Shown here: piece by piece, positions 1,411 to 39,005 of the stretch
Layout: each line of letters opens with the position of its first letter
How positions within the stretch are numbered: the first letter of the stretch is position 1
Origin: an uncultured Actinomycetota bacterium
GTDB lineage: Bacteria > Actinomycetota > Acidimicrobiia > Spongiisociales > UBA4744
Assembly: GCA_963723165.1 (NCBI GenBank)
Contig: CAVRPP010000010.1
Span: 128,882 to 192,881 of the forward strand
Reading direction: 5' to 3'
Length of the DNA: 64,000 nucleotides
The notes under the pieces: generated by a model
Seen by the model: only the letters and a program-made list of their open reading frames with translations
Database searches by the model: none
What the model was told of the DNA's origin: nothing
Position numbers and translations under genes: made by a program

Positions 1411-1815
1411 ATGAGGTTGATCAACATCGATCACGTGGCGATCGCCGTGCATGATCTTGACGAGGCGCTCGACGAATACGAACGGCAATACCACGTGCGG
1501 GCTGCGTCCCGAGAGGTCATCGAGGAACAAGGGGTGGAGGAGGCCATGCTTCCCATCGGCGCCTCTCATGTGCAGTTGCTGGCGCCCCTGCACCCCGACA
1601 CGCCCGTTGGCCGCTTCCTGGCCAAACACGGAGAGGGCCTCCATCACATTGCCTATGCAGTTCCCTCGATAGACGAAGCTCTGCGGCATCTGGTCGACGA
1701 GGAGGTAGAGCTGATCGACGATCATCCGCGGGTAGGCGGAGGCGGGCACCGGATCGCCTTCGTGCATCCCCGGGCCCTGGCCGGTACGCTCATCGAACTG
1801 GTGGAACTGCAATGA
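1411..1815 (+). CDS. methylmalonyl-CoA epimerase (VOC/glyoxalase family)
   Basis: 134 aa; 'INIDHVAIAV...GEGLHHIAYAV...HPR' glyoxalase-fold epimerase pattern; ATG at 1411. Confidence 0.8.
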   Translation: MRLINIDHVAIAVHDLDEALDEYERQYHVRAASREVIEEQGVEEAMLPIGASHVQLLAPLHPDTPVGRFLAKHGEGLHHIAYAVPSIDEALRHLVDEEVELIDDHPRVGGGGHRIAFVHPRALAGTLIELVELQ

Positions 1816-2204: not shown

Positions 2205-2253
2205 CTGGCTACTGGCTACTGGCTACTGGCTACTGGCTACTGGCTACTGGTTG
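2205..2253. repeat. perfect (CTGGCTA)6 heptanucleotide tandem repeat plus one variant unit
   Basis: 6 identical 7-mers from 2205 to 2246 then CTGGTTG; non-coding, ~45 nt upstream of the 2297 gene start. Confidence 0.95.
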
Positions 2254-2296
2254 CTGATTCCTCAATGCGGACCGGTATTAGACCGAAATACCTGTT

Positions 2297-3391
2297 GTGA
2301 ACGCCCCGTTGGCCGGTTCCGAGGTTCGTCGAACCGAGCGCGCCACCCATCTCGTCATCCTGATGGTGGTGCTCGGCTTGCTGCTGCCGTTGCTGCTCTG
2401 GCCCGGTATCGCCGCGCTGGTGTGGTCCCTGCGTTCCGAAAGCAAGCTCAGTCTGGTGGTCTACGACCAGACCGTTCCAGACGCTTCCTATCTGGAGCAC
2501 GCCTCGCTCGGGTTGGTGCTCGAGTACGAGAAGGTTCCCTTTGCCAAGGAGGATTCCTTCATAGGCGCAGGACCCGGTGGAGCCCCGCACGGGGCCTGGC
2601 CTGCAACCGCGCCGGATCTGATCATGCTGGTCGATGCCTACGGGGTCTACGTCGACGACGACGGCGAGGTATCGGACCAGGGCACTAATCGCATAACGGA
2701 TGCGTTCGGGGAAGAGGATGCCGACACCGTTCTGGACTGGGCCGCTTCGGGGACCATGGTATTTGGGGAGTTCAACATCTTTGGCGAACCGACGGCGTCT
2801 CCGGCGTCGCTGAGACTCCAGGGACTCTTCGGCGTGGAGCGAACCGGGTGGGCGGGGCGGCCCTTCGATGATCTGGCCGCCGTCCCTGAGCGTTTGATGG
2901 CCCTGGCCGGAGGGACCTGGGATTACACCGGTGGGGGCATCGTTCTGCTGGCGCCGGGACCGGAAGGTGCCTCGGTGGTGGTGCTCACCGCCGATGAGTT
3001 GGCGGATCCACTGCCGGTCGTTGAAGGGACCCTCCCCGGCTCGGGCCGGTCCGCGGCGGCGAGGCTGGATGGATGGTTCGAGATCATCGCCGCCGCTCCC
3101 GGAACAGAGGTAGACATGCTGATGCGGCTTCCGGTGAACGAATCCGGTCGTATTCTCCTCAGTCAGGCGGGCATACCGACGGAATGGCCCTTCCTGGTCC
3201 GTACCGAGAAATCCCTCTACCTGGCCGCCGATGCTTCCGAGAACAGTGTTGAGTTCCCATTGCGAAGGATGACAGGCTCTCCGGCCTTGATGCGGGTTCT
3301 GCCGCAGTCGCCGGAAACCGAATTCTTCTACAGGGTGTACATGCCCGTGGTGCGATGGCTCGTGGACAATGCCAACTCAGAGGACCGATAG
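2297..3391 (+). CDS. membrane-anchored hypothetical protein (N-terminal TM helix, large extracytoplasmic domain). First gene of a putative exopolysaccharide module
   Basis: GTG at 2297 (alternative ATG at 2363); hydrophobic 'LVILMVVLGLLLPLLLWPGIAALVW'; no recognisable catalytic motif. Confidence 0.6.
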   Translation: MNAPLAGSEVRRTERATHLVILMVVLGLLLPLLLWPGIAALVWSLRSESKLSLVVYDQTVPDASYLEHASLGLVLEYEKVPFAKEDSFIGAGPGGAPHGAWPATAPDLIMLVDAYGVYVDDDGEVSDQGTNRITDAFGEEDADTVLDWAASGTMVFGEFNIFGEPTASPASLRLQGLFGVERTGWAGRPFDDLAAVPERLMALAGGTWDYTGGGIVLLAPGPEGASVVVLTADELADPLPVVEGTLPGSGRSAAARLDGWFEIIAAAPGTEVDMLMRLPVNESGRILLSQAGIPTEWPFLVRTEKSLYLAADASENSVEFPLRRMTGSPALMRVLPQSPETEFFYRVYMPVVRWLVDNANSEDR

Positions 3392-3821: not shown

Positions 3822-3826
3822 GGCGT

Positions 3827-3888
3827 CCTCCCCCTGACGAGCGGAGCTCGTCGGTGAGGGGGAGGTGTCGAGACCGGATAGGTCTCGG
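3827..3888 (+). terminator. two consecutive GC-rich hairpins downstream of the receiver gene
   Basis: CCTCCCCCTGACGAGC..GCTCGTCGGTGAGGGGGAGG followed by CGAGACC-GGATA-GGTCTCG; no U-tract. Confidence 0.4.
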
Positions 3889-4104
3889 TGGAGGGGGGAT
3901 CGTTCTCACCACGGTGCATTGGGTTTCCGCATGTATTTGCCCCCGCGAACGCATCAATAGGCCTCCTTCGCGTGCCGATGCAATAAGCCAGGAGGAATTC
4001 ATGTCGTGCGCCCTCAACTTGTGGACGCGTCGGCCTGCCGTGCTCTTCAGCACCGGCGAGGCCGCCTGCTCGCGCGCCGCCTCCGTTTCGGGGTGGGGTG
4101 AATC

Positions 4105-5283
4105 GTGAGCGAACTCATGCTTCCCATCCTTGCCATCCTCGGCGCAGTAACTGCAATTGCCGGTTCGAGCCTCTTTGTCTACAAACTGATCCGCCATCGC
4201 CGTGAACGGTTCGATGAGTTCCGGCGGGCCTCGTACATCGGGGCGCTGAGCGAGATGGCCACCCGCTCCGGGTATCCCCTGGAGATGTTGCGCCGCTGGT
4301 CACCCGATGGTGTGTTCCTCGAGACCCTGCTCGAGTTCTTGAAGTTCCTGCAGGGTGGTGAGCGTCAGAACCTCCTCCGTCTGGCCAGGGAGTTGGGGAT
4401 CGTCGAACGTTTCGTCACCGAGCTCCGCACCTCAAAAGGCCGCAACACCCGCGTGCAGGCGGTCAAAGCCCTGGCCGAGTTTGCCGATCCGGCCTCCGCC
4501 GATGCGCTGCTTGAAGCGCTCGGGGACAAGGTTGATGAGATCCGCTGGCAGGCCGCCGGAGCTCTTGCCAAGATCGGGGATCCGCGAGCCGTCCGGCCCT
4601 TGCTCGAGACTCTGCAAACGGAATCGGAGTGGGGGGCCAGCCGGATCGGCGACACGCTGGTGTCCTTCGGAGCGGCTGCCGTCCCCGACCTGGCTCGATA
4701 TGCCCTGCTCAGCGATCCCAACCTATCTTCGAACACCGCCCATCTGCCGCTGATTGCGAGAGTTCTTGGGATAATCGGCGACGTTCGCGCCGAGCCGGCA
4801 ATGCTGTCCGCGCTCGAGTCGGATGAGGCCGAATTGCGGATCCGGGCGGCCGCCGCCCTCGGAACAGTCGGGTCGCTGGCTTGTGTTCCTGCCCTGCTCA
4901 GGGGTCTGCATGATTCCGAGTGGGAGGTGCGGGCCCAAGCGGCTGCCGCCCTCGGGCGGCAAATGGACGGACGGGCCATCGAAGGCCTCCGGGGAGCAAT
5001 GCGCGACGAGAACTGGTGGGTCCGCCAAAACAGCGCTCAGGCTCTCTCGGAGATCCCTGGTGGCGTCGTCGCTCTGGTCGAGGGTCTCGAGGACGAAGAT
5101 CGGTTCGCCCGCGACGCTTCCATCGAGCGCCTCATGGCAATGGGTCTGGTCCGCAAGGCGGTTGACGCGGTCAAGGGTGGAGCGGGCGACGATCAAGACC
5201 GCCATATCGTGCGCCAGCTCGTCGTGTTGGGCAGGGGTGAATACCTGCAGGACAAAGCAGCGAACGAAAAGGTGGCCGGATGA
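4105..5283 (+). CDS. HEAT/PBS-lyase-repeat protein with N-terminal TM helix
   Basis: GTG at 4105; N-terminal hydrophobic helix; repeated 'VRxxAAxALGxxGDxRAVxPL' HEAT-like units; stop overlaps the next start (ATGA at 5280). Confidence 0.75.
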   Translation: MSELMLPILAILGAVTAIAGSSLFVYKLIRHRRERFDEFRRASYIGALSEMATRSGYPLEMLRRWSPDGVFLETLLEFLKFLQGGERQNLLRLARELGIVERFVTELRTSKGRNTRVQAVKALAEFADPASADALLEALGDKVDEIRWQAAGALAKIGDPRAVRPLLETLQTESEWGASRIGDTLVSFGAAAVPDLARYALLSDPNLSSNTAHLPLIARVLGIIGDVRAEPAMLSALESDEAELRIRAAAALGTVGSLACVPALLRGLHDSEWEVRAQAAAALGRQMDGRAIEGLRGAMRDENWWVRQNSAQALSEIPGGVVALVEGLEDEDRFARDASIERLMAMGLVRKAVDAVKGGAGDDQDRHIVRQLVVLGRGEYLQDKAANEKVAG

Positions 5284-6692: not shown

Positions 6693-6701
6693 ACAGCAAA
6701 C

Positions 6702-6743
6702 GAGTTCCCCGGTTACTGGTTCGCAGTTCGCAGTTCCCAGTTC
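6702..6743. repeat. heptamer tandem array (NCAGTTC-like)x6 in a convergent intergenic region
   Basis: GAGTTCC CCGGTTA CTGGTTC GCAGTTC GCAGTTC CCAGTTC. Confidence 0.8.
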
Positions 6744-6777
6744 GCAGGAATGGTGTGCCTTCAGTGACGACTGACGA

Positions 6778-8346
6778 CTACTTCATCCGCTTCCGCAGCT
6801 CGTGCAGTTCGGGTGAGCGCATCAGTCGGGAAACGGCCAGGTAGACGGCCATCACAATGGCGGCACCAATCGCCACCAGTCCGAGTGAACCCCAGAACCC
6901 GGGTAGTTCGTCTCCCGAAATCCACTGCACCGCCAGCCAGGCAATCGGTGCGGAAACTGCCACCCCGACTGAACCTCTCACCAGGGCGCCGGCAATGGCG
7001 GAGACCCCCTCGCGACCCGCTCTCGAGTGCCAGGCGGTCCCCAGGACGATGGTGTAGAGAACCATTGCCAGGGTGCTGGCCACGGCGAAACCGGGCTCAT
7101 CGAAGCGGCTCAACCACCAGTACAGACCGATGGCTACGACGGTGCCGGCAGTTCCTATGAATACCGGGGTCCACATCTGGCGGCGAGCATAGAAGGCCCG
7201 GGAGTAGATCTGGTGGGCACCCCAGGCAGGGACCGAGAGGCCGTAGAACACCAGCAGCGTTGCCGTGAGCACGGTGTCGCTCGGACCGAACTCGCCCCGC
7301 TCGTAGACGACCCGTACGGCCGGTTGGGAAAGAGCGAGGATGGCGGCGACGGCCGGGGCGCTGACGAAAATGGTGTACCGGATCGTCCTGGCGACGGTGG
7401 CTGCCATCTCCTGAAGCTTGCCTTCTTCGACCAGTCTGGCCAGATAGGGATAGGCAGCCACGCCCGCAGTTTGGGCGATGACCCCGATGGGCAGCATGTT
7501 CAAACGGCGTGCGTAGGTGAGCGCAGAGATGCCACCTGCCTCGGTCAGCTGGCCGAAGAGCCGGACGAACTGTTCGTCGAGCACAGCGATCGATTGCCCG
7601 AGCATCAGAGGGAGGGCCAACAGCAAGTACTCCCGGAGAGCGGGATGCCGGAGCGGAACGCCGTTCACCCACCGCAGACCGGCCCGGCGGGCCCCGTACC
7701 ACTGCAGAGCGAAGTTGCCGACAAAGGCCCCCCCGACCGCACCCCAGGCGAAACCGGCAGCTGAGGTGCTGCCGATGGCCCACGAAATGAGTCCACCGGC
7801 GATGATGCCGAGGTTGTAGATGACCGGTGCGACGGCGGGGATGGCGAAACGCTGATGAGCGTATTGGACGGCCATCCACAGCGAACCAAGCACAAAGAAG
7901 ATCTGGGCGGGGAGGACGATGCGAGTAAGCCGGGTCACCTCGGCAGCCTGGGAGACGTCGAAGCGCGGGTACACCAGGTCCGTCAGCGATCCGGCGAAGA
8001 TCATCGCCAGTACCGTCAAGCCGAGCATCGCCAGTGCCACCGGACGAAAGACGGCGGCGAAAGCCCGATGTCCTTCCTCCACGTCGCCCCGCACCATGTG
8101 GCGAGTGATGATCGGGATGAAGGTCACCGTGAGGTACCCGCCGGCCATCAGATAGAACAGGACGTCGGGGATGACGAAGGCTGCCTGGTAGGCATCCCCG
8201 GCGGCGGTGTTGCCCAACAGGCCTGCCAGTGCGACGTTGCGAAGCATGCCGAGGACACGGGAAAGGAGGATCCCGGCGGATACGACCAGAGCGGCTTTGC
8301 CCATCCCTCCTGTCGATCCTCCGCTGTTGTCGCCGGGGTCGCTCAT
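6778..8346 (-). CDS. murJ: lipid II flippase MurJ (MviN)
   Basis: 522 aa; polytopic; 'ALVVSAGILLSRVLGMLRNVALAGLLG...DAYQAAFVIP' is a typical MurJ N-terminus. Confidence 0.85.
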   Translation of the reverse strand: MSDPGDNSGGSTGGMGKAALVVSAGILLSRVLGMLRNVALAGLLGNTAAGDAYQAAFVIPDVLFYLMAGGYLTVTFIPIITRHMVRGDVEEGHRAFAAVFRPVALAMLGLTVLAMIFAGSLTDLVYPRFDVSQAAEVTRLTRIVLPAQIFFVLGSLWMAVQYAHQRFAIPAVAPVIYNLGIIAGGLISWAIGSTSAAGFAWGAVGGAFVGNFALQWYGARRAGLRWVNGVPLRHPALREYLLLALPLMLGQSIAVLDEQFVRLFGQLTEAGGISALTYARRLNMLPIGVIAQTAGVAAYPYLARLVEEGKLQEMAATVARTIRYTIFVSAPAVAAILALSQPAVRVVYERGEFGPSDTVLTATLLVFYGLSVPAWGAHQIYSRAFYARRQMWTPVFIGTAGTVVAIGLYWWLSRFDEPGFAVASTLAMVLYTIVLGTAWHSRAGREGVSAIAGALVRGSVGVAVSAPIAWLAVQWISGDELPGFWGSLGLVAIGAAIVMAVYLAVSRLMRSPELHELRKRMK

Positions 8347-9203: not shown

Positions 9204-9311
9204 AGTCGGTAGGAGCGTAACGCAGGCTCCTGGACCGCAATGGGTTCGTTTGCGCTCGGCTCCTTGTTGCTGGTTGCCTGCCGTTCGTACCGGAGCGCGG
9301 AGAACGAAGAA

Positions 9312-10112
9312 CTAGGAACCAATAGCGATTTCGACCTTTTCGATGTAGACCGTTTCCAGGGGCAGGCTCTGTTCGGTTGCCGTCGTCCCGTCTCGCCCGG
9401 TCAGCTGCACCGACCTGATCCGGTCGAGGGTGTCATCGGAGTCGACGGCGGTACCGAAAACCGAAAAGGCGTTGTCGAGACCGGCGTCTTCGCCGTCAAC
9501 GACGAAGAACTGGCTGCCGGTCGAATTGGCGCCACTGTTGGCCATCGCCAGGACGCCGCGGCCATACGTGAACCCGTCCTCCGGGAACTCATCGGCGATC
9601 AGGTAGCCGGGGCCACCGTTTCCGATGGCCGTTGGGTCGCCACCCTGGATGGCGAACTCGGGGACGATGCGGTGAAAGACCGACCCGTCGAAGTAGCCCT
9701 GCCGGGCCAGGAACACGAACGAGTTGACGGTCTCGGGAGCGATTGAGGGGTCGAGTCGGGCAATGATGTCACCGCACGAGGTGGTGATCGTGGCCGTGAC
9801 TGTGGCATCGGGCGCAATGCCCTGGTCTTCGGGGGCGGTGAAGGTCATCTCCGTCACCGGGTCCGGGGCCTCCGCTTCGCAGGCGGTCGGTTGGGAGCGA
9901 TAGCCGTCGTAGTCGACAGGGATGGTCGTCGTCGCGGTCGGCTCCGAACTGTCGAACAACGTTGGCAGGACGAGCAGGACGGCCAGCACACCTACCAGGA
10001 CGGTCAGCTGGGTCGCTCGCTTCCGCAGCTTGCGTTGCCTGGCCAGCTTCTCTTGCTCTTCTCGCTTCTTGGCACGGTTTTCCCGTTGTCGTTCACGCTT
10101 GTTGGTCGGCAT
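9312..10112 (-). CDS. peptidyl-prolyl cis-trans isomerase (cyclophilin type) with N-terminal basic/TM segment
   Basis: '[15 protein letters not shown]...[15 protein letters not shown]' cyclophilin core; start chosen at the internal ATG (10112) because aspartokinase begins at 10188 on the other strand. Confidence 0.8.
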
Positions 10113-10187
10113 AGCGACAGGACTATAGGCCTCTTCTTGGAGGGGATCGTCGGGACGGAGCCAGACCGGCGGTACACTCCCGGCGCG

Positions 10188-11414
10188 ATGTCCTTGATAG
10201 TCCAAAAATACGGCGGCACATCGGTCGCAGACGGTGAGCGGATCAAGCGAGTGGCAGCCCGCGTTGCCGGTACCCGGCGGGCGGGCCACGACGTGATTGT
10301 CGTTGTCTCGGCAATGGGTGGGACCACCGATGAATTGATCGACCTGGCTCGCCAGGTCAGCTCGTCACCACCCGGCCGGGAGATGGACATGCTGCTCACC
10401 GCCGGGGAGCGGATCACGATGGCGCTGCTGGCCATAGCGATCCACGAAGAAGGGGTCGAGGCGGTCAGCTTCACGGGTTCCCAAGCAGGCATCCTGACGG
10501 ATTCGAGCCACGGGCAGGCGAAGATCCAGGAGATTCGCAATTTCCGGGTCGAAGAGAGCCTCAAAGAAGGCAAGGTGGTCATCGTTGCCGGGTTCCAGGG
10601 AGTTGACCCGCAGTCAAAGGATGTCACTACCCTCGGCCGGGGCGGCTCGGACGCAACTGCCGTAGCCCTGGCTGCCGCCAATCACGCCGATGTGTGCGAG
10701 ATCTATACCGACGTAGACGGGGTCTTCACGGCCGATCCACGCATCGTCCCCGACGCCCGCAAACTCGACGAGGTTTCGTTCGAAGAGATGCTGGAACTGG
10801 CGGCGACGGGCGCCAGGGTCCTGATGCTCCGGTCGGTGGAATTCGGCCGCAATTTCAACGTTCCCCTCCATGTGCGCTCGTCATTCCACGACGGCCCCGG
10901 GACCTGGGTGAAGGAGACAACAATGGAACAGGCGATCATCAGCGGAATATCGCACGACACTTCGGAAGCGAAGGTCACGGTCCGGGGTGTTCCGGATCGT
11001 CCGGGCGTCGCCGCTGCCTTGTTCGAGCCTCTCGCTCTCCGGGAAGTCAACGTCGACATGATCGTGCAGAACGTGTCGAAGGACGGGACCACCGACATCA
11101 GCTTCACTGTTCCCAAGGAGCATGCGGCTAGGGCCATGGAGGTGGTGGAGAAGGTTGTTCCGGAGATCGATGCGGCCGGTGTCGATATCGACGAGGAAGT
11201 TGCCAGAGTGTCCGTGGTGGGAGCGGGCATGAAATCGCACCCGGGAGTGGCGGCCAGAATGTTCCGGGAATTGTCCGCCAACGGGATCAACATCGAGATG
11301 ATCTCCACGTCGAGCATCCGCATATCCTGTGTTGTCGCCCTGGAACAGATCGAAGAAGCAGTGCGGGTCCTGCATGCTGCTTTCGAACCGCCGACCATGG
11401 TGGGGGATCTATGA
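10188..11414 (+). CDS. ask: aspartate kinase
   Basis: '[13 protein letters not shown]', ACT domains at the C-terminus; followed by asd with an ATGA overlap. Confidence 0.9.
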
Positions 11415-13593: not shown

Positions 13594-13667
13594 CGGGACG
13601 TGGCGCAGTTTGGCAGCGCGCAGCGTTCGGGACGCTGAGGTCGCCGGTTCGAATCCGGCCGTCCCGA
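13594..13667 (+). tRNA. tRNA-Pro (anticodon CGG)
   Basis: manual fold: acceptor CGGGACG/CGTCCCG (C1:G72 as in bacterial tRNA-Pro), D-arm GCGC-AGTTTGGCA-GCGC, anticodon arm CAGCG-TTCGGGA-CGCTG, T-arm GCCGG-TTCGAAT-CCGGC, discriminator A; CCA not encoded. Confidence 0.85.
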
Positions 13668-17850: not shown

Positions 17851-19653
17851 TCACTCTGCGCGCACGCTCCTGAGATCCCCCGACCGGATGGTCACTCTCT
17901 GAGAATCCAGGTATTCCAGGAGCGGCACCGCGTATTTGCGCGAAAGCCTGAGAGCGTCCCGAAAGTCAGCCACGGTGAACTGCTCCGGCAGCGTATCCAG
18001 TTGCCGGACGATGTCGTCGAGTTGCTCCTGAAGGTAGATCAGGTCTTCCCCGATTCGGACTACCCGGTCCTGGCGGACCAGCGCATGGAGCAACTCGCGG
18101 TCGATTCCCATCTCCTTGATGCGAGGAACTGCCCAACCCGACGCAACGAGGGTGGCTCGCAGGCTCTCCCAGGCTGCCTCCTGGCTGCTGGTCAGGGTGC
18201 CGCCGAAGCCCTCCTCGGCCACCGTGGCGCCGTCGTCGCGCAGCTTGGTCGAAGCCCCGACCAGGGCTTCTACGACGGCGGGATCCACCGACAGGAGGCT
18301 GGCCAGGCTCGCTTTCGGCATACCTGGTCGGAGCGGGTTTTCGCGGTGGAAAGAACCTACGGTGCTGAGAGCACGACCGGACAATTCAGCAGCCGATTCC
18401 TGCGAGAGGGCGAGAGTTCCGACAATCACTGCTCCGGCCGGGACGCCTCCCCCGGAGTCCGCGGCGAGACGCGCCAGGGATTCACTGCCCCGGACCCCGA
18501 GGAGCGTCGTAGCGATGTCATCAGCCGAGCCTTCGATGGCTCCGGGCAGCACTTCGGCGGAGCGGCGGAGATCGGAGATCCCAATGGATGGGTGGGGATC
18601 GAGCACCCGGCCCCCTCCGACAACCGATCGCCGGCCAACCTCGCGAACAATGAAACGGTCACCGACCTTGAGGGGAAGAGGGTGCGACAACTGCAGAAGG
18701 GCGGGTCCGGAGCCTTCCAGTGCGGAATCCTGGACCAGGCGGATCCGGACCGGCCAGGCGCCGCTGCCGAGGTGTAGGTGGTAGGCGCCTCGATTAGTGA
18801 GGGGTTCCTCGAGGTAGCGGGCGGTGGTGATCTGTACGAGGACGGTGTCGGTTGTCTGCCAATCATCCGGCCGGCCCAGCATCGCACCCCGGGTCACCTC
18901 GGCCCTGTCCAAACCGACCACGTTCACGGCTACGCGATTGTGAGGGGTTACCCGGACGTGATCTCGCTCGTGACTCTGCAAATTGCGGATCCGGCCTCGC
19001 ATGTTTCCAGGCCAGGTCTCAACCTGATCGCCAACAGCCAGAGAACCATCGAGCAGGGTTCCGGTCACGACCGTGCCTGCCCCGGCGATCGTGAACGAAC
19101 GATCGACCCACAAGCGCGGCCGGCCACTATCGATCAGGGAAGGAGAGACCTTCCGGATGGCCAAGTCCAGCGCACGCCGCACATCATCGATTCCCTGGTT
19201 CGACAGCGCCGAAACGGGAACGACCGGGCTTCCGGCGAGTGATGTGCCCGCCACCTTCTCGTCCACCTCGAGGCTCACGAACTCCATTAGCTCGTCATCG
19301 ACCCGGTCGACTTTGGTGATGGCCACGACGCCTTCTGCGACCCCCAGGAGGTCGAGGACGGCCAGGTGCTCCTCGGATTGCGGCATCCAGCCTTCGTCTG
19401 CGGCGACGACAAAAAGTGCGACGTCAATGGCCTCGGACCCCGCCAGCATGTTCTTGATGAACCGCTCGTGGCCCGGAACATCAACGAACGAGATCTCGGT
19501 TCCGTCGGCGAGTGTGGTCCACGCGAAGCCGAGGTCGATGGTGAGCCCTCGGCGCTTCTCCTCGTCCCAGCGGTCAGGATCCCGTCCGGTCAGCGCCTGG
19601 ACCAATGTCGACTTGCCGTGGTCGACGTGTCCGGCTGTGCCTACGACCGGCAT
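17851..19653 (-). CDS. selB: selenocysteine-specific elongation factor SelB
   Basis: 'GTAGHVDHGKSTL...DVPGHERF' GTPase plus long C-terminal winged-helix region; 600 aa. Confidence 0.85.
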   Translation of the reverse strand: MPVVGTAGHVDHGKSTLVQALTGRDPDRWDEEKRRGLTIDLGFAWTTLADGTEISFVDVPGHERFIKNMLAGSEAIDVALFVVAADEGWMPQSEEHLAVLDLLGVAEGVVAITKVDRVDDELMEFVSLEVDEKVAGTSLAGSPVVPVSALSNQGIDDVRRALDLAIRKVSPSLIDSGRPRLWVDRSFTIAGAGTVVTGTLLDGSLAVGDQVETWPGNMRGRIRNLQSHERDHVRVTPHNRVAVNVVGLDRAEVTRGAMLGRPDDWQTTDTVLVQITTARYLEEPLTNRGAYHLHLGSGAWPVRIRLVQDSALEGSGPALLQLSHPLPLKVGDRFIVREVGRRSVVGGGRVLDPHPSIGISDLRRSAEVLPGAIEGSADDIATTLLGVRGSESLARLAADSGGGVPAGAVIVGTLALSQESAAELSGRALSTVGSFHRENPLRPGMPKASLASLLSVDPAVVEALVGASTKLRDDGATVAEEGFGGTLTSSQEAAWESLRATLVASGWAVPRIKEMGIDRELLHALVRQDRVVRIGEDLIYLQEQLDDIVRQLDTLPEQFTVADFRDALRLSRKYAVPLLEYLDSQRVTIRSGDLRSVRAE

Positions 19654-20987
19654 GCCGCCTGCAGGGCCGCAGCGAGGTCCTCGTCCTGATCAGCAGGTAC
19701 CGCCCGCACGTCGATGATCAGCTCTCCGGCTTCCCGCCGGGCGATCACCGGGATGTCCCACATCAGCAAGCGGTCCCAGACCAGATCGGCTGCTGGTTCC
19801 TGCACGACCAGAACGGGAGACGGAACGGTGGCGCCCGGGACCGAGCCTGCGCCTGGAACCGACTCGCCTGCCCGAATCTCACCGACGGTACCCGACTCGG
19901 CCAAGATGTTTTCGAGTCGCGAATTCAGGTCGGAAGGCAGGGTTGCCGCCATCGCCCAGAACGGGATCTCCTGGCCCCGCCCGTCGGCATACATCTCGAG
20001 GGTTGCCGAAAGGGCTGCCAGCGTCGGCCCGCCACATCGAACGGCCCGAGCCGCCGGATGTTTGGCAATCCTCGCGACAAGATCGGCCTTGCCGACAACT
20101 ATCCCGGCCTGCGGCCCGCCGAGCAGCTTGTCGCCTGAGAACAGGACCAGATCGGCGCCCGCTTCGACTGCTTGACGGACCCCGGGTTCCTCAGCCAGCC
20201 AGTGCGGTGGGGGGCCAGACAGCCAGGGGACGTTCTCGTCGAGGAGTCCACTTCCGACGTCGTAGACAAGCGGCAATCCACGGTCATGGGCTAGTTCGAC
20301 CATCGGCTTCAGATCGACCTCCTGGGTGAACCCGACCACCCGGTAGTTGGACGTGTGAACCTTGAGCAGCAGGGCCGTTTCTGCGGAGACCGCAGATGAA
20401 TAGTCTGCGAGGTGCGTTCGATTGGTAGTTCCAACCTCGACCATCGTTGCTCCGCTGGCGGCCATCAGTTCGGGGAGCCGGTATGAGCCGCCGATTTCAA
20501 TGAGTTCGCCGCGTGAGACCGGCACCTGTCTTCCCGTCGCCAGAGCCGCCAGCGTCAGGTAGAGGCCGGCAGCGTTGTTATTGACCACCAGGGATGCCTC
20601 GGCGCCGGTCGAGATTCGGGCCAGCTCGCGGACGTATCCTGCTCTGCCTCCGCGATTGCCGGTGACGAGATCGAATTCCACATTCCCGTAGGACGTGGCT
20701 GCCGCCCGGGCTGCATCGGCTGCTTCGCCGGCGAGGGGTGCTCGTCCCAGATTCGTGTGAAGAAGCACGCCGGTGGCGTTGATGACCGCCTGGAGGCGGC
20801 TGGCCTGGAGACGGCCGACGATTTCCCCAGCAATTACGCGGGGGTCTCCTTCGTTTCCTCGGGCGATTTCTTCTCTCGCCCGGTCGATCGCGGTCCGGGC
20901 ACATTCAATGACGATCGATCGTGGCAGGCCCGTGGCAGGCAGGGCCCGCACAAGGGCGTCGACCGACGGCAGGTCACGGAGCGGCAT
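19641..20987 (-). CDS. selA: L-seryl-tRNA(Sec) selenium transferase SelA
   Basis: 448 aa; 'INATGVLLHTNLGRAPL'; PLP-fold; 13-nt overlap with selB. Confidence 0.85.
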   Translation of the reverse strand: MPLRDLPSVDALVRALPATGLPRSIVIECARTAIDRAREEIARGNEGDPRVIAGEIVGRLQASRLQAVINATGVLLHTNLGRAPLAGEAADAARAAATSYGNVEFDLVTGNRGGRAGYVRELARISTGAEASLVVNNNAAGLYLTLAALATGRQVPVSRGELIEIGGSYRLPELMAASGATMVEVGTTNRTHLADYSSAVSAETALLLKVHTSNYRVVGFTQEVDLKPMVELAHDRGLPLVYDVGSGLLDENVPWLSGPPPHWLAEEPGVRQAVEAGADLVLFSGDKLLGGPQAGIVVGKADLVARIAKHPAARAVRCGGPTLAALSATLEMYADGRGQEIPFWAMAATLPSDLNSRLENILAESGTVGEIRAGESVPGAGSVPGATVPSPVLVVQEPAADLVWDRLLMWDIPVIARREAGELIIDVRAVPADQDEDLAAALQAACRS

Positions 20988-23762: not shown

Positions 23763-23968
23763 TTTTCCCACACCCAGTCGGAAACGAGGAGTATACCGAC
23801 GGCCGGCGGATTCGAGACCCGTGACTCGTGACACAATGTGCCCACGATGTTTTGCACGGATGATGCCTTGACCCGATGGTTCCCAGCCGATGACGAGAAT
23901 CGTTGGCGTCCATCCGGGAGCGGCGCGTCGAGCCTGATGCGTTTCGTGTTTCAAAGGCGAGCGGTGTC

Positions 23969-24742
23969 ATGAAGGTTGAGTGCGTCCTCGCCCCGAACCC
24001 GGGCCCGTTCACGGGTCCCGGGACAAACACCTATCTGCTCGCCTCCGGCGCTGAGGTGCTGCTGATCGATCCTGGACCGCTCGATCGCTCACACGAAACA
24101 GCGATCATGGACACGGTTGGAGACCGCCTGCCCGTGGGGATTCTCGTCACCCACACCCACGAGGATCATGCCCCTCTGGCGAATCCACTGGCAGCCAGCC
24201 TGGGTGTTCCCACCTACGGAAACGCGCCCGGACCGGGCTTCAAGCCCGACCTGCTCCTTGCCGATGAAGACCTGGTGGGGTTCGGAAATCAACAAGTGCA
24301 GGCGCTGCACACGCCCGGGCACAGCCGCGACCATCTCTGTTTCCTGGTCGGGGACAGTCTCTTCACCGGGGATCACATCATGGGCGGATCGTCGGTTGTC
24401 GTTGAGGACATGACCGCCTACCTGGAAAGCCTGCGGAGGCTGCAACAGTTGGATCTGGCGAGGCTGTACCCCGGGCACGGACTTGTCATGGAGGATCCCG
24501 CCGGTATCGTGGCCTCGTACATTGAGCACCGTCTCGAACGAGAGCGACAAGTGCTTGCGGCCGTGAAGACTGGAGCGAGCACCGTCATGGAGATCGTCCA
24601 GACCGTCTATGCGGATATTGATTCCGCCCTCCATCCTCTGGCAGCCATGTCAGTACGAGCCCATCTGGTCAAGCTCGCCGCGGATGGCACCGTACGGCTC
24701 AACGGCGATGACGACGCCCATCCGGCTGGAGGCACTTCATGA
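23969..24742 (+). CDS. MBL-fold metallo-hydrolase
   Basis: 'THTHEDH' metal-binding motif; 'HTPGHSRDH'. Confidence 0.8.
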   Translation: MKVECVLAPNPGPFTGPGTNTYLLASGAEVLLIDPGPLDRSHETAIMDTVGDRLPVGILVTHTHEDHAPLANPLAASLGVPTYGNAPGPGFKPDLLLADEDLVGFGNQQVQALHTPGHSRDHLCFLVGDSLFTGDHIMGGSSVVVEDMTAYLESLRRLQQLDLARLYPGHGLVMEDPAGIVASYIEHRLERERQVLAAVKTGASTVMEIVQTVYADIDSALHPLAAMSVRAHLVKLAADGTVRLNGDDDAHPAGGTS

Positions 24743-25950
24743 AGGGGCTCCTTCGTCTGCTGGGCGCACTGTTGGTGGTGGCACTGATTGCCCTCCCGGC
24801 GGCCGGGCAGGTGACCCCGCAAGATATTGCCGAGTCGGAGGCCGAGCTGGTTGCTCTGCGGGCCGAGACTGATCAACTGGCCGCCGAATACGAAGCTGCG
24901 GTAACCCGCTCGGCTCAGCTCGAGGATCAGGTGGCAGGTCTCGAGGCTGCGACTCAGGATTCGCAGATCGAACTGGGGATAACTCGCCAATTGGTCCGGG
25001 AACGCGTGGTCGAGATGTACATCGAGTCGAGCACCGCCCAGATTTCGTTGCTCTTTGTAGAGGATCTCGATGGTGGCATCGAGGTCGCCATCGGATATCT
25101 CGAGCAGTTGGGAACTTCCGACACGAAGCTTCTCCGGGATCTAGAGATCATCAAGACAGAGTACGAGCGTCAGCTCGCCGAGCTGGAGACCGCCAAAACT
25201 GAGCAGGAAACGGTGGTATCGGACCTCGCCGCGGTCGGCACTCAGCTGAGCGCCCGCCTGGAGGTGGCCCAGAACAGCTACGTGAACCTGGTGGCACAGC
25301 GGGCCGCCGAAGAACGAGCCCGGCTGGAGGAAGAAGCACGGCAACGGGCGATTGAAGAAGCCCGGCTGGCTGCCGAAGAAGCTGCCCGGGCGGCAGCCAC
25401 GACGACCACGGTCGCACCGACGACGACCAGTGCCGCCGGGACCACGACGACGGCGGCTGGTGAGACCACGACGACGGCAGCCGGTGAGACCACGACGACG
25501 GCAGCCGGTGAGACCACGACCACGACGGCACCTCCGCCCCCACCATCTGGAAAGGCCTGTCCGGTTGACGGGTTCACCAGCTTCACCGACACGTGGGGAG
25601 CGCCACGCTCCGGGGGCCGATCCCATCAAGGCGTCGACATGCTGGGAGCTCGATGGACCCCCCTTGTTGCTCTGGAATCCGGCACGATCCACCGGATGGG
25701 CAATGGAGGTCTCGGTGGCATCACCATCTGGCTGCGGGGCGCCACCGGCCACCGGTACTACTACGCCCATCTGGAAGCGTGGGCCGACGGGCTGAAGGTC
25801 GGCCAGTCCGTCCAGGTCGGCGAATTGATCGGGTACATGGGCACATCGGGGAACGCTCCCGACTACATCCCGCATGTGCACTTCGAGTATCACCCGGGAG
25901 GCGGAGCGGCCGTCAATCCATACCCGCTGGTCAAAGGTCTGTGCGGCTAG
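24739..25950 (+). CDS. M23-family peptidase with N-terminal coiled-coil and Thr-rich linker
   Basis: 'HQGVDM...HVHFEYH' LytM motifs; coiled-coil region; ATGA overlap with the previous gene. Confidence 0.85.
   Translation: MKGLLRLLGALLVVALIALPAAGQVTPQDIAESEAELVALRAETDQLAAEYEAAVTRSAQLEDQVAGLEAATQDSQIELGITRQLVRERVVEMYIESSTAQISLLFVEDLDGGIEVAIGYLEQLGTSDTKLLRDLEIIKTEYERQLAELETAKTEQETVVSDLAAVGTQLSARLEVAQNSYVNLVAQRAAEERARLEEEARQRAIEEARLAAEEAARAAATTTTVAPTTTSAAGTTTTAAGETTTTAAGETTTTAAGETTTTTAPPPPPSGKACPVDGFTSFTDTWGAPRSGGRSHQGVDMLGARWTPLVALESGTIHRMGNGGLGGITIWLRGATGHRYYYAHLEAWADGLKVGQSVQVGELIGYMGTSGNAPDYIPHVHFEYHPGGGAAVNPYPLVKGLCG
25456..25530 (+). repeat. 24-bp in-frame tandem repeat x3 (encodes GETTTTAA units) inside the M23 peptidase gene
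   Basis: ggtgagaccacgacgacggcagcc repeated. Confidence 0.8.
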
Positions 25951-25984
25951 TTCGCTTCGCTCGCGGTAATCAGTTATCAGTCTG
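25951..25984. repeat. TCGCTTCGCTCGC box plus heptamers (CGGTAAT CAGTTAT CAGTCTG)
   Basis: same box and heptamer type as at 2127-2176. Confidence 0.7.
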
Positions 25985-26219
25985 TCGCATGCCGAGAAGC
26001 AAGAAAGCAGAAGATCGGCTTAGCGCCGATCCTCTGCTTTGCGGTCCCCAGGGAAGGGGATCTGGTTGTCTCCCAGCGCTTCGAGTGTGGTTCGCCTCCC
26101 AGCGGCCTTATCACCTTGGCACGTTCTCCATGAGTATCGGGCTTGGAGGCCCAGGAGTTGGGGGCGGTTTGCGGTTCGCCCTAAGTGACTAGTGCCCTAT
26201 GGCCGGAGAGCGGAGCACT

Positions 26220-29910: not shown

Positions 29911-29915
29911 GAAGT

Positions 29916-30019
<104 letters not shown>

Positions 30020-30024
30020 CGCTC

Positions 30025-30876
30025 ATGACCTATTCGATTGTTGCTTGGGATCCGTTTGCCGGACCGGAGTGGGGGGTGGCGGTCGCCTCGAAGTTCCTGG
30101 CGGTTGGAGCTCTGGTCCCCGCTGCCAGACCTGGGGCGGGAGCGGTCGCCACCCAGGCCCTGACGAACGTCGCATACGGCCCGAACGGGATCGAGCACTT
30201 GACCGGCGGGCTGGACGCTGCCTCTACGTTGGAGGTGCTGCTCTCAGCCGATGAACTTCGCTCTCAGCGTCAGGTCGGCATCGTGGATTCCCAGGGTGAG
30301 ACCGCGACATACACCGGTGATCACTGCATGGAGTGGGCCGGTGGAAGGACCGGCCTGGGCTACGCCTGTCAGGGCAATATTCTGACCGGTCCCGAAGTCA
30401 TCGACGGAGTGGCCGGGGCCTTTGAAGCCACGCAGGGGAGCCTGGCGCGACGTTTGCTCACCGCCTTGGCCGCGGGCGAGGATGCCGGTGGTGACCGTCG
30501 CGGCCGTCAATCGGCCGCCATTCTGGTGGTGCGGGCGGGCGGGGGTTATGCAGGCGCCTCGGACGTCTCGGTCGATCTGCGGGTCGATGATCATGCCGAA
30601 CCGGTTTCAGAGTTGGATCGTCTCCTGACCATTCATGAGTTGTTGTTCCCCAACCCCATCTCGCTCGACTGGGTAGAGATATCGGCTCCCCTGCCTGCCA
30701 AGATCAGGCGGGCGCTCATCGCCCGTGGCCTCGATACCGGCAAAGGCAAGGGATACAGTGACGATCTGCGCAGGGCCCTGTACGGATGGGTAGCCATGGA
30801 GAACCTCGAGGAACGATGGTCGGACGAGGCGAAGATAGATAGGACGGTCCTCGAACTGCTCCTGGCCGTGGACTGA
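30025..30876 (+). CDS. DUF1028-family (Ntn-hydrolase-like) protein with C-terminal peptidoglycan-binding-like domain
   Basis: 'MTYSIVAWDP...GDHCMEWAGG' is typical of DUF1028; ATG at 30025. Confidence 0.65.
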   Translation: MTYSIVAWDPFAGPEWGVAVASKFLAVGALVPAARPGAGAVATQALTNVAYGPNGIEHLTGGLDAASTLEVLLSADELRSQRQVGIVDSQGETATYTGDHCMEWAGGRTGLGYACQGNILTGPEVIDGVAGAFEATQGSLARRLLTALAAGEDAGGDRRGRQSAAILVVRAGGGYAGASDVSVDLRVDDHAEPVSELDRLLTIHELLFPNPISLDWVEISAPLPAKIRRALIARGLDTGKGKGYSDDLRRALYGWVAMENLEERWSDEAKIDRTVLELLLAVD

Positions 30877-38891: not shown

Positions 38892-39005
38892 GGGTACCTG
38901 CTCTCCCGCTGATGGCCGGCCGGCATTTCGGAAGACGGGGACGAGCAACCTCGCTCTCTGCCCGTCCGGGCTCAAGAGAGAGGTTCTGGCAACCGACAAT
39001 TACCT

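Follow-up and report, generated by a model that had tools for sequence, protein, structure and literature searches.

Heptanucleotides are the commonest class of long simple sequence repeats (SSRs), and polymerase slippage has been suggested to be favoured at a unit length of 7 nt (Mrazek et al. 2007, according to the summaries in PMC4679880 and PMC4692102). Here we analyse a perfect heptamer tract within a 64,000-nt stretch of DNA from an uncultured Actinomycetota bacterium of the class Acidimicrobiia (assembly GCA_963723165.1, contig CAVRPP010000010.1), hereafter referred to as the window. The tract lies in the intergenic gap in front of the first gene of a putative exopolysaccharide (EPS) cluster, and a first-pass annotation had proposed it as a slipped-strand phase-variation switch of a kind rarely reported in Actinomycetota. 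The statement on rarity is partly true, but three Actinobacteria are listed among the ten genomes richest in long SSRs of 5-11 nt (Mrazek 2007, as summarised in PMC4679880).

Several families of heptamer arrays have been described. Rehm et al. 2015 (PMC4692102) reported genome-wide intergenic arrays of GGGAATC in Xanthomonas and GGGGA(C/T)T in Nostoc, of 2 to >20 copies, which are over-represented in non-coding DNA between aligned or convergent open reading frames (ORFs) and rare between divergent ones, and which form 70-75 inverted pairs per Xanthomonas genome and only a few in Nostoc. Between species the position and type of these arrays are kept and their length and sequence vary; the flanking genes belong to all functional classes, and a role in phase variation was judged unlikely (PMC4692102). 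Arrays of TAACTGA occur in marine Beggiatoaceae, Cyanobacteria and some Bacteroidetes, with 7-nt indels between strains (MacGregor 2015, PMC4679880); in Beggiatoaceae, 169 direct sets were counted vs. one indirect repeat, in forward orientation just upstream of start codons (PMC4679880). The (ATCTTTC)n repeat of Haemophilus influenzae hmw1A and hmw2A, by comparison, is a phase-variable heptamer located upstream of a surface gene (PMC8262952, PMC12721329). At hmw1A the repeat is transcribed as part of a hairpin in the 5' untranslated region (UTR), for which processing by RNase III was shown experimentally, and expression falls as the number of units rises (PMC12721329).

The tract studied here is the right arm of a two-armed heptanucleotide element. 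We consider it somewhat better than an even chance (a probability of roughly 0.55) that it is one arm of a dispensable, fast-evolving SSR element that fills a gap between a stop codon and a promoter, and that belongs to an intergenic family found throughout the lineage. Tandem Repeats Finder (TRF) reports (ACTGGCT)x6.7 at 2204-2250 (period 7, 100% matches, score 94); in the register of the first-pass annotation the tract reads (CTGGCTA)6 at 2205-2246, with the variants ACTGGTT (2246-2252) and GCTGATT (2253-2259) after it, and the perfect tract ends 46 nt upstream of the GTG start codon at 2297. A probe of three units has a unique match in the window and none in 100 dinucleotide-preserving shuffles; the heptamer tract near the GTG is thus real and far beyond chance. 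Absent from the earlier description were an inverted partner array at 2140-2174, further heptamer arrays in the 64 kb, and a conserved promoter-like block.

For comparison we assembled 24 related loci (given L numbers below) from six species-representative metagenome-assembled genomes (MAGs; 71-77% amino acid identity), contigs with exact protein matches, and metagenome contigs. On the plus strand of the window, the gap opens with the TGA stop codon (2112-2114) of a 100-aa gene (1812-2114). A left-terminus motif, GCTTCGCTCG, follows at 2130-2139 and precedes the CAG-type arm; the same motif stands before a CAG-type arm at other intergenic sites, among them window position 25954, L003 9642, L006 9760 and 11497, L008 1016, and L010 11537. 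This left arm (the A arm, 2140-2174; 2147-2172 in TRF) comprises the five heptamers CAGTTCT, CAGTTAC, CAGTTAC, CGGTTTC and CAGTTCT, and is inverted relative to the B arm (2204-2259), in which six perfect ACTGGCT units (2204-2245) are followed by the two variant units. Between the arms lies a 29-nt spacer (2175-2203), the predicted loop region of a hairpin, holding a core, TGGTATGCCT (2193-2202), that is common to the orthologues L003 and L005 and appears as TGGTGTGCCT in a second element of the window, e2 (6751); the core consensus across sites is ATGGTRTGCC. Only a tRNA in the window passes Rfam gathering thresholds, and the heptamer elements are covered by no known RNA family.

Both arms change quickly. 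The metagenome contig L001, from the Joint Genome Institute (JGI), shares 99.5% identity with the window across 2.2 kb and has seven ACTGGCT units where the window has six, differing otherwise by one single-nucleotide polymorphism and one 3-nt complex change; variation in unit number, which the first-pass annotation had called for as a check, is thereby seen directly between near-identical sequences, in the single such pair at hand. L005 and L022, which are ~95% identical to each other, have 13 vs. five B units and six vs. eight A units. L008 (93.5% nucleotide identity, same sample) keeps the flanks, and its arms are (CTCAGTT)3 and (ACTGATG)x3-4. The array is much larger in L003 (~26 A units and ~17 B units, including a run of nine perfect ones) and in L005, with its 13 B units all perfect; it is small in L004 (three A and three B units), and is built from other units in L010 (GCTGGCY), L006 (CAGCTAT and ~11 CCTGAAA) and L014 (at least eight GCTTGTT, the contig ending within the array). 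Unrelated filler sequence occupies the orthologous gap in L002/L012 and in L009/L017. The heptamer array is missing in L007, L013, L016 and L020, of which L007 and L020 have a short, non-repetitive gap and L013 and L016 a stop codon 0-2 nt from the promoter block. Arm size at this one site therefore ranges from 0 to about 26 units, assembled from differing heptamers, and six orthologous loci without an array (L002, L007, L009, L013, L016, L020) nonetheless retain the promoter. Such fast change in unit number and sequence between relatives is as expected from slipped-strand mispairing.

An exact DNA search of metagenome contigs with the left junction gave no match, nor did exact-protein look-ups of the 364-aa product of the gene at 2297, the epimerase and the receiver protein encoded nearby; all three protein look-ups probably failed owing to differing start-codon calls. 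Two contigs, the Logan contig L025 (1-25) and L014 (1-57), begin inside arrays, indicating that short-read assemblies break there; L025 begins within the array of element e3 (below) and thus gives no copy number for it. Copy numbers in assemblies broken by arrays, possibly including that of the window, should be confirmed at the level of reads.

The boundary of the element on the downstream side is a promoter-like block (2261-2289, plus strand). When 17 orthologues are aligned at the GTG, they share, at fixed positions, CTCA(AT), a 17-nt non-conserved spacer, the octamer (G/A)CCGA(A/C/T)(A/G)T, 7 non-conserved nt and the GTG itself; in the window the putative -35 CTCA lies at 2261-2264 and is followed, after N17, by the -10-like sequence ACCGAAAT (2282-2289). 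This arrangement closely fits the actinobacterial consensus of WhiG1, in the sigma-28 family (-35 CTCA, N16-17, -10 GCCGAACT; 2026 preprint, PMC12871210); the consensus of the WhiG2, or flagellar, type is T(A/C)AA, N16, GCCGATAA (PMC12871210; PMC8325347). The fixed distance of 7 nt from octamer to GTG implies an mRNA without a 5'UTR, and the transcript of the 364-aa gene is, on this pattern of conservation, probably leaderless, beginning at or beside the GTG. A sigma-70 promoter scan of 1700-2500 returned nothing, the only terminator-like site in the same interval is on the minus strand within the gene and thus irrelevant, and no sigma factor was found among the ~34 window proteins scanned.

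This geometry bears on the mechanisms suggested for a switch. The B arm extends from about -93 to -38 relative to the GTG, upstream of the -35 element. Since the tract lies upstream of the conserved CTCA, the -35/-10 spacing cannot be altered by the number of units, and since the units are identical, the promoter-proximal sequence also stays constant; only the spacer core and the A arm move, by 7 bp. Neither of the two routes put forward in the first-pass annotation, a change in the spacing of promoter elements or in 5'UTR structure, is supported: the tract ends upstream of a predicted -35 conserved in 17 orthologues, and the constant 7-nt lead of the start codon implies a leaderless mRNA. What stands of the proposed phase-variation locus is slippage-type variation in unit number (6 vs. 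7; 13 vs. 5); what is not supported is a switch acting through promoter spacing or a 5'UTR.

The same class of promoter motif recurs elsewhere in the window: at 3953-3981, in front of a small 35-aa ORF that overlaps the start codon of a HEAT-repeat gene; at 38971-38999, 6 nt upstream of the ATG (39006) of a GAF histidine kinase gene; and on the minus strand at 41640-41613. Two of the copies lie 6-7 nt before start codons, implying leaderless mRNAs for the 364-aa gene and the GAF histidine kinase. Taken as sequence matches, these sites suggest a WhiG-like regulon in this Acidimicrobiia lineage that would include the PgaC-like polysaccharide operon.

The tract is also far from alone. Among sliding 28-nt windows, 86 have >=20 self-matches at lag 7 and none do at lags 5, 6 or 8-11; they fall at 2124-2182, 2190-2274, 6700-6757, 9285-9332, 29912-29947 and 29974-30035, and a weaker lag-7 match was noted at 23796-23834. 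Element e2 (6710-6781, plus strand) has five to six CAGTTCG-type units, followed by the core ATGGTGTGCCT and then by ACTGACG units; it lies between a convergent family 2 glycosyltransferase (GT2) gene (stop codon 6690-6692) and the MurJ gene (stop codon 6778-6780), where no promoter is expected, and has orthologous arrays in L002, L003, L004, L006 and L010. Element e3 (29914-30019, plus strand) has an NNCCAGT-type arm (29914-29947), a 41-nt spacer and a perfect (ACTGGAA)x4.4 arm (29989-30019), and ends 5 nt upstream of the ATG (30025) of a DUF1028 gene. The sole purine-rich, Shine-Dalgarno-like sequence before that start codon sits within the repeat; unit number or arm pairing could affect initiation of DUF1028 translation. 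A degenerate element, e4 (25951-25990, plus strand), follows the stop codon of an M23 peptidase gene and reads GCTTCGCTCG, CGGTAAT, CAGTTAT, CAGTCTG and a core-like TCGCATGCC. Finally, a weaker one-armed period-7 array (9285-9332; GGAGAAC, GAAGAAC, TAGGAAC) occupies the 3' end of a cyclophilin gene (9312-10289, minus strand), between it and a PHP gene.

Across the window and the six related MAG loci, 30-odd arrays were found, at a density of five in the 64-kb window and 2-8 per 21-kb related locus, and all of them are non-coding once three start-codon miscalls are corrected (the codon-usage gene caller errs at a few starts, which were corrected by hand with Pfam matches). Arrays lie only downstream of stop codons: among intergenic gaps of >=40 nt in 12 sequences, they occur in 21 of 108 co-directional or convergent gaps vs. 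0 of 26 divergent ones (Fisher p=0.013), a count that depends on crude gene calls and non-independent orthologues. The genes beside them are unremarkable, encoding an aldehyde dehydrogenase and the DUF1028 protein, the cyclophilin and PHP proteins, the M23 peptidase, and the GT2 and MurJ. The expectation that such repeats target surface-polysaccharide loci is accordingly not borne out, as similar arrays adjoin the DUF1028, M23 peptidase and cyclophilin genes as well as occupying the GT2/MurJ gap.

Two further kinds of intergenic element were observed. A second two-armed unit family, at L002 4389-4480 and L010 4380-4465, is composed of (CGTACTT)n, a spacer and (CGAAGTA/CAAAGTA)n, with almost fully complementary (CGTACTT)n and (CGAAGTA)n arms, so that the two-armed design is not tied to a CAG/CTG core. 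The other is a dispersed, non-heptamer element, a GC-rich double hairpin (CCTCCCCCTGACGAGCGGAGCTCGTCGGTGAGGGGGAGG then GTGTCGAGACCGGATAGGTCTCGGTGGAGGGGGG) directly after stop codons, found in the window at 3826-3900 and at L003 6622 and 11617, L005 ~11572 and 11674, and L009 1440-1520 and 3130-3210, and also in L004, L010, L013, L015 and L017; in L009 and L017 it fills the same gap as the heptamer element does in the window.

Pairing between the two arms was assessed in 16 two-armed elements, partly orthologous to one another, by taking the majority unit of each arm and permuting the A/B pairings. In 14 of 16 elements the base on the 5' side of the A-arm CAG can pair with the one on the 3' side of the B-arm CTG (permutation p=0.021), and the base on the 3' side of CAG with the one on the 5' side of CTG, likewise in 14/16 (p=0.0044); the combined p of 0.0002 for both flanking positions is optimistic, given the partial orthology. 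The outer two unit positions pair in only 2 and 7 of the 16. Arms are thus complementary at five of seven bases per unit, with compensatory changes at two positions, as illustrated by the helix types of orthologues: CCAGT/ACTGG in the window, L003 and L005, TCAGT/ACTGA in L008, TCAGC/GCTGA in L004 and CCAGC/GCTGG in L010. Minimum-free-energy folds show arm-to-arm pairing in most elements tested, with z-scores of -1.8 for the present element (e1), -2.0 for e3, +0.8 for e2 in the window, -4.1 for e2 of L003, -3.3 for L006:540, and -0.4 for both L008 and L010. Folding energy was rejected as proof of a hairpin, as dinucleotide shuffles of such repeats fold nearly as well. The complementarity itself is real at the sequence level, and could be kept either by selection for an RNA or DNA hairpin or by template switching from arm to arm.

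In the reading we favour, the element would occupy the gap from the upstream stop codon to the -35 of a conserved WhiG/sigma-28-type promoter, from which a probably leaderless mRNA for the PgaC-like polysaccharide operon would be made. The repeat would then lie outside the -35/-10 spacer and outside the mRNA, with the proximal sequence unaffected by unit number, and the element would be a dispensable intergenic hairpin or filler that may provide the upstream transcript with a 3'-end structure or an insulator. Length polymorphism would be mainly a by-product of slippage; the tract is probably not a dedicated on/off switch, and whatever effect it had on the operon would be graded and indirect. 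Several points weigh against this reading. The promoter and the leaderless start are deduced from conservation alone; a hairpin at this place would not be a canonical intrinsic terminator, because a scan of 2115-2296 found no U-tract; folding energies are inconsistent (z from +0.8 to -4.1), and e2 lacks an arm-to-arm fold. Template switching could maintain the complementarity of the arms without selection, and the partial orthology of the elements means that p-values overstate their independence. Moreover, a perfect run of six units beside a promoter, long in three species, is what a tunable locus would look like.

Among the alternatives, it is fairly unlikely that the arms work as a functional RNA hairpin, both being carried at the 3' end of the epimerase/100-aa transcript or reached by read-through. 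The RNA would form a long helix in which 5-bp steps alternate with 2x2 loops, its strength set by arm length, and would terminate, insulate or stabilise the transcript or serve as a target of RNase III. Compensatory changes between arms are what such a hairpin would leave, but correction of hairpins at the DNA level can also give covariation. Two members of the family fold arm to arm with z-scores of -3.3 and -4.1; for the present element and several others the support from energy is weak. No element was found other than downstream of a stop codon; e3, which ends 5 nt before a start codon, must be part of a transcript; and the hmw heptamer hairpin offers a precedent (PMC12721329). A consensus scan of the gap at 2115-2296 nevertheless found no intrinsic terminator, with no T-run after the B arm, and relatives dispense with the arrays altogether.

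A true contingency or tuning locus is harder to sustain, and we regard it as distinctly improbable. Here, a 7-bp step would rotate both the A arm and the spacer core TGGTATGCCT through two-thirds of a helical turn with respect to the WhiG-type promoter, or would alter a cruciform or other DNA structure just upstream of the -35, and the polysaccharide operon would respond with a graded or periodic output. An analogue of such tuning is provided by the TAAA repeats that lie upstream of Neisseria meningitidis nadA. The polymorphism between near-identical sequences, the arm that abuts the -35, the conservation of the core motif in several orthologues, and the heptamer arrays that also precede the second WhiG-like promoter of the cluster in L003, L006 and L010 all speak for it. 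Against it, the sequence from the -35 to about -93 is constant whatever the unit number, the six array-free orthologous loci keep the promoter, elements of the same type lie between convergent genes and beside housekeeping genes, and the core motif has no known regulator.

A bolder and still less probable proposal is that the two-armed elements are not debris of slippage but selected periodic helices, with five paired and two unpaired bases per step upheld by compensatory changes, which a protein or nuclease would recognise or which would be extruded to form a cruciform, and that arm length tunes both insulation from the upstream transcript and the output of a leaderless polysaccharide operon controlled by cyclic di-GMP (c-di-GMP) and WhiG. 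If this were true, the element would be a heritable, reversible dial on surface-polymer production in free-living, uncultured Acidimicrobiia.

Very little credence attaches to the arrays being bound by a protein with a 7-nt reading step on nucleic acid, such as a cold-shock-domain protein, in a post-transcriptional network; a protein of that class, binding at about one molecule per heptamer, has been proposed for the Beggiatoaceae TAACTGA repeats (PMC4679880). The strict period of 7 nt, in which the CTG/CAG core is conserved and the flanks vary, would suit such a reader, as would the overlap of e3 with a ribosome-binding region and the presence of TAACTGA in related loci, as ACTGATA units (L003, L004). 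The units, however, differ widely by site and species (ACTGGCT, CCTGAAA, GCTTGTT, AAGTACA), the present tract lies outside the predicted mRNA, and no candidate protein was identified. The reading of the tract as a coding repeat, (WLLATGY)n, in an ORF at 2197-2688 was rejected, and next to no weight falls on it: that ORF appears in the mechanical ORF list, but it overlaps the conserved 364-aa gene out of frame, was left unselected by codon-usage scoring, and would have its frame broken by the 7-nt indel of L001, and the orthologous arrays differ in units and lengths.

The genes around the element keep their order among the relatives: thiolase (minus strand), methylmalonyl-CoA epimerase, the 100-aa protein, the 364-aa protein, a receiver domain, a HEAT-repeat membrane protein, GT2 and MurJ (minus strand). 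In the window the epimerase gene (1411-1815, plus strand; TIGR03081, 137 bits vs. a 115-bit cut-off) is followed by the 100-aa gene. The first gene of the cluster (2297-3391, plus strand; GTG start) encodes the 364-aa protein, which has an N-terminal membrane helix, matches no Pfam or NCBIfam family, and has 36 homologues, of which the few named by organism are mostly from Acidimicrobiia or uncultured Actinomycetota MAGs; homologues share its start position at GTG 2297. The best named match of the GT2 is PgaC/IcaA, at 147 bits vs. a cut-off of 422. The label of an EPS module, given to this cluster in the first-pass annotation, is thus plausible and not proven, in view of a PgaC-like GT2 that scores below its cut-off, a HEAT-repeat membrane protein, a receiver domain and a convergent MurJ gene.

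Other features of the window were observed in passing. The 35-aa ORF (MSCALNLWTRRPAVLFSTGEAACSRAASVSGWGES; 4002-4107), whose small size keeps it out of the ORF lists, is equipped with a strong AGGAGG ribosome-binding site and ends in a stop codon that overlaps the GTG (4105) at which the HEAT-repeat gene starts; it is conserved in L009 and L010. Adjacent genes for SelB and SelA (selenocysteine incorporation) lie at 17851-20987 on the minus strand, and a 74-nt tRNA at 13594-13667. A 24/48-nt tandem repeat (3.5 copies, 95% matches) at 25420-25526 is inside the M23 peptidase gene (24739-25950), and is in frame because 24 is divisible by 3; this coding repeat has no relation to the heptamer family.

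If our ordinary reading of the element is true, the value of the analysis is mainly corrective and descriptive. On its own, a perfect SSR next to a surface-polysaccharide operon does not suffice for a call of phase variation; the genome-wide background of heptamers needs to be checked first. The analysis would extend to the Acidimicrobiia the intergenic heptamer families, still unexplained, of Xanthomonas, Nostoc and the Beggiatoaceae; our literature search found no report combining Acidimicrobiia, tandem repeats and intergenic regions. The new detail, arms that co-vary and are complementary at five of seven bases with two unpaired, constrains models of how such arrays arise or act. A by-product is the prediction of a class of WhiG-type leaderless promoters in this lineage, one of them before a PgaC-like operon, where it would link c-di-GMP/sigma-28 control to exopolysaccharide synthesis in uncultured Actinomycetota.

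How the element compares with known systems can be stated for each in turn. It resembles the hmw repeats as a 7-nt SSR upstream of a surface-structure gene, varied by slippage and forming one arm of a long (here, predicted) hairpin; unlike the repeat in the hmw 5'UTR, however, it is one of many arrays, and the gene, probably leaderless, has its predicted -35 downstream of the tract. The hmw1A repeat, the best-studied heptamer with a function, acts from within a transcribed hairpin of the 5'UTR, and this locus does not fit such an arrangement. Repetitive extragenic palindromic (REP) sequences, bacterial interspersed mosaic elements (BIMEs) and elements resembling MITEs (inverted-repeat transposable elements of miniature size) are imperfect intergenic palindromes at the 3' ends of genes, present in many dispersed copies. 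With these the present elements share a semi-conserved terminus (GCTTCGCTCG) and core (ATGGTRTGCC) at several sites, but their arms are arrays of a variable number of 7-nt units rather than fixed sequence, and no terminal inverted repeats, target-site duplications or cognate transposase were seen at them.

The heptamer families come nearer. Cyanobacterial short tandemly repeated repetitive (STRR) sequences use the heptamer units CCCCAGT and CAACAGT. The Beggiatoaceae TAACTGA arrays are matched in being intergenic heptamers with an ACTG/CAGT core and 7-nt indel steps, and e3 likewise ends a few nt short of a start codon; L003 and L004 contain TAACTGA as such, and the present A arm reads as (TAACTGG)n on the opposite strand. 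The typical form differs, with two inverted arms downstream of a stop codon here in place of single direct arrays. Compared with the arrays of Xanthomonas and Nostoc, the units of this lineage (ACTGGCT, CAGTTAC) have a CTG/CAG core and lack the G-tract of GGGNATC, so that G-quadruplex formation does not apply, and the arms are complementary at only five of seven positions, the outer 2 nt being systematically unpaired. In the remaining respects the likeness to the Xanthomonas and Nostoc families is close: in both cases the arrays consist of tandem 7-nt units in non-coding DNA, are absent from (here) or rare in gaps between divergent genes, occur as inverted pairs, and keep their position from species to species as their length varies.

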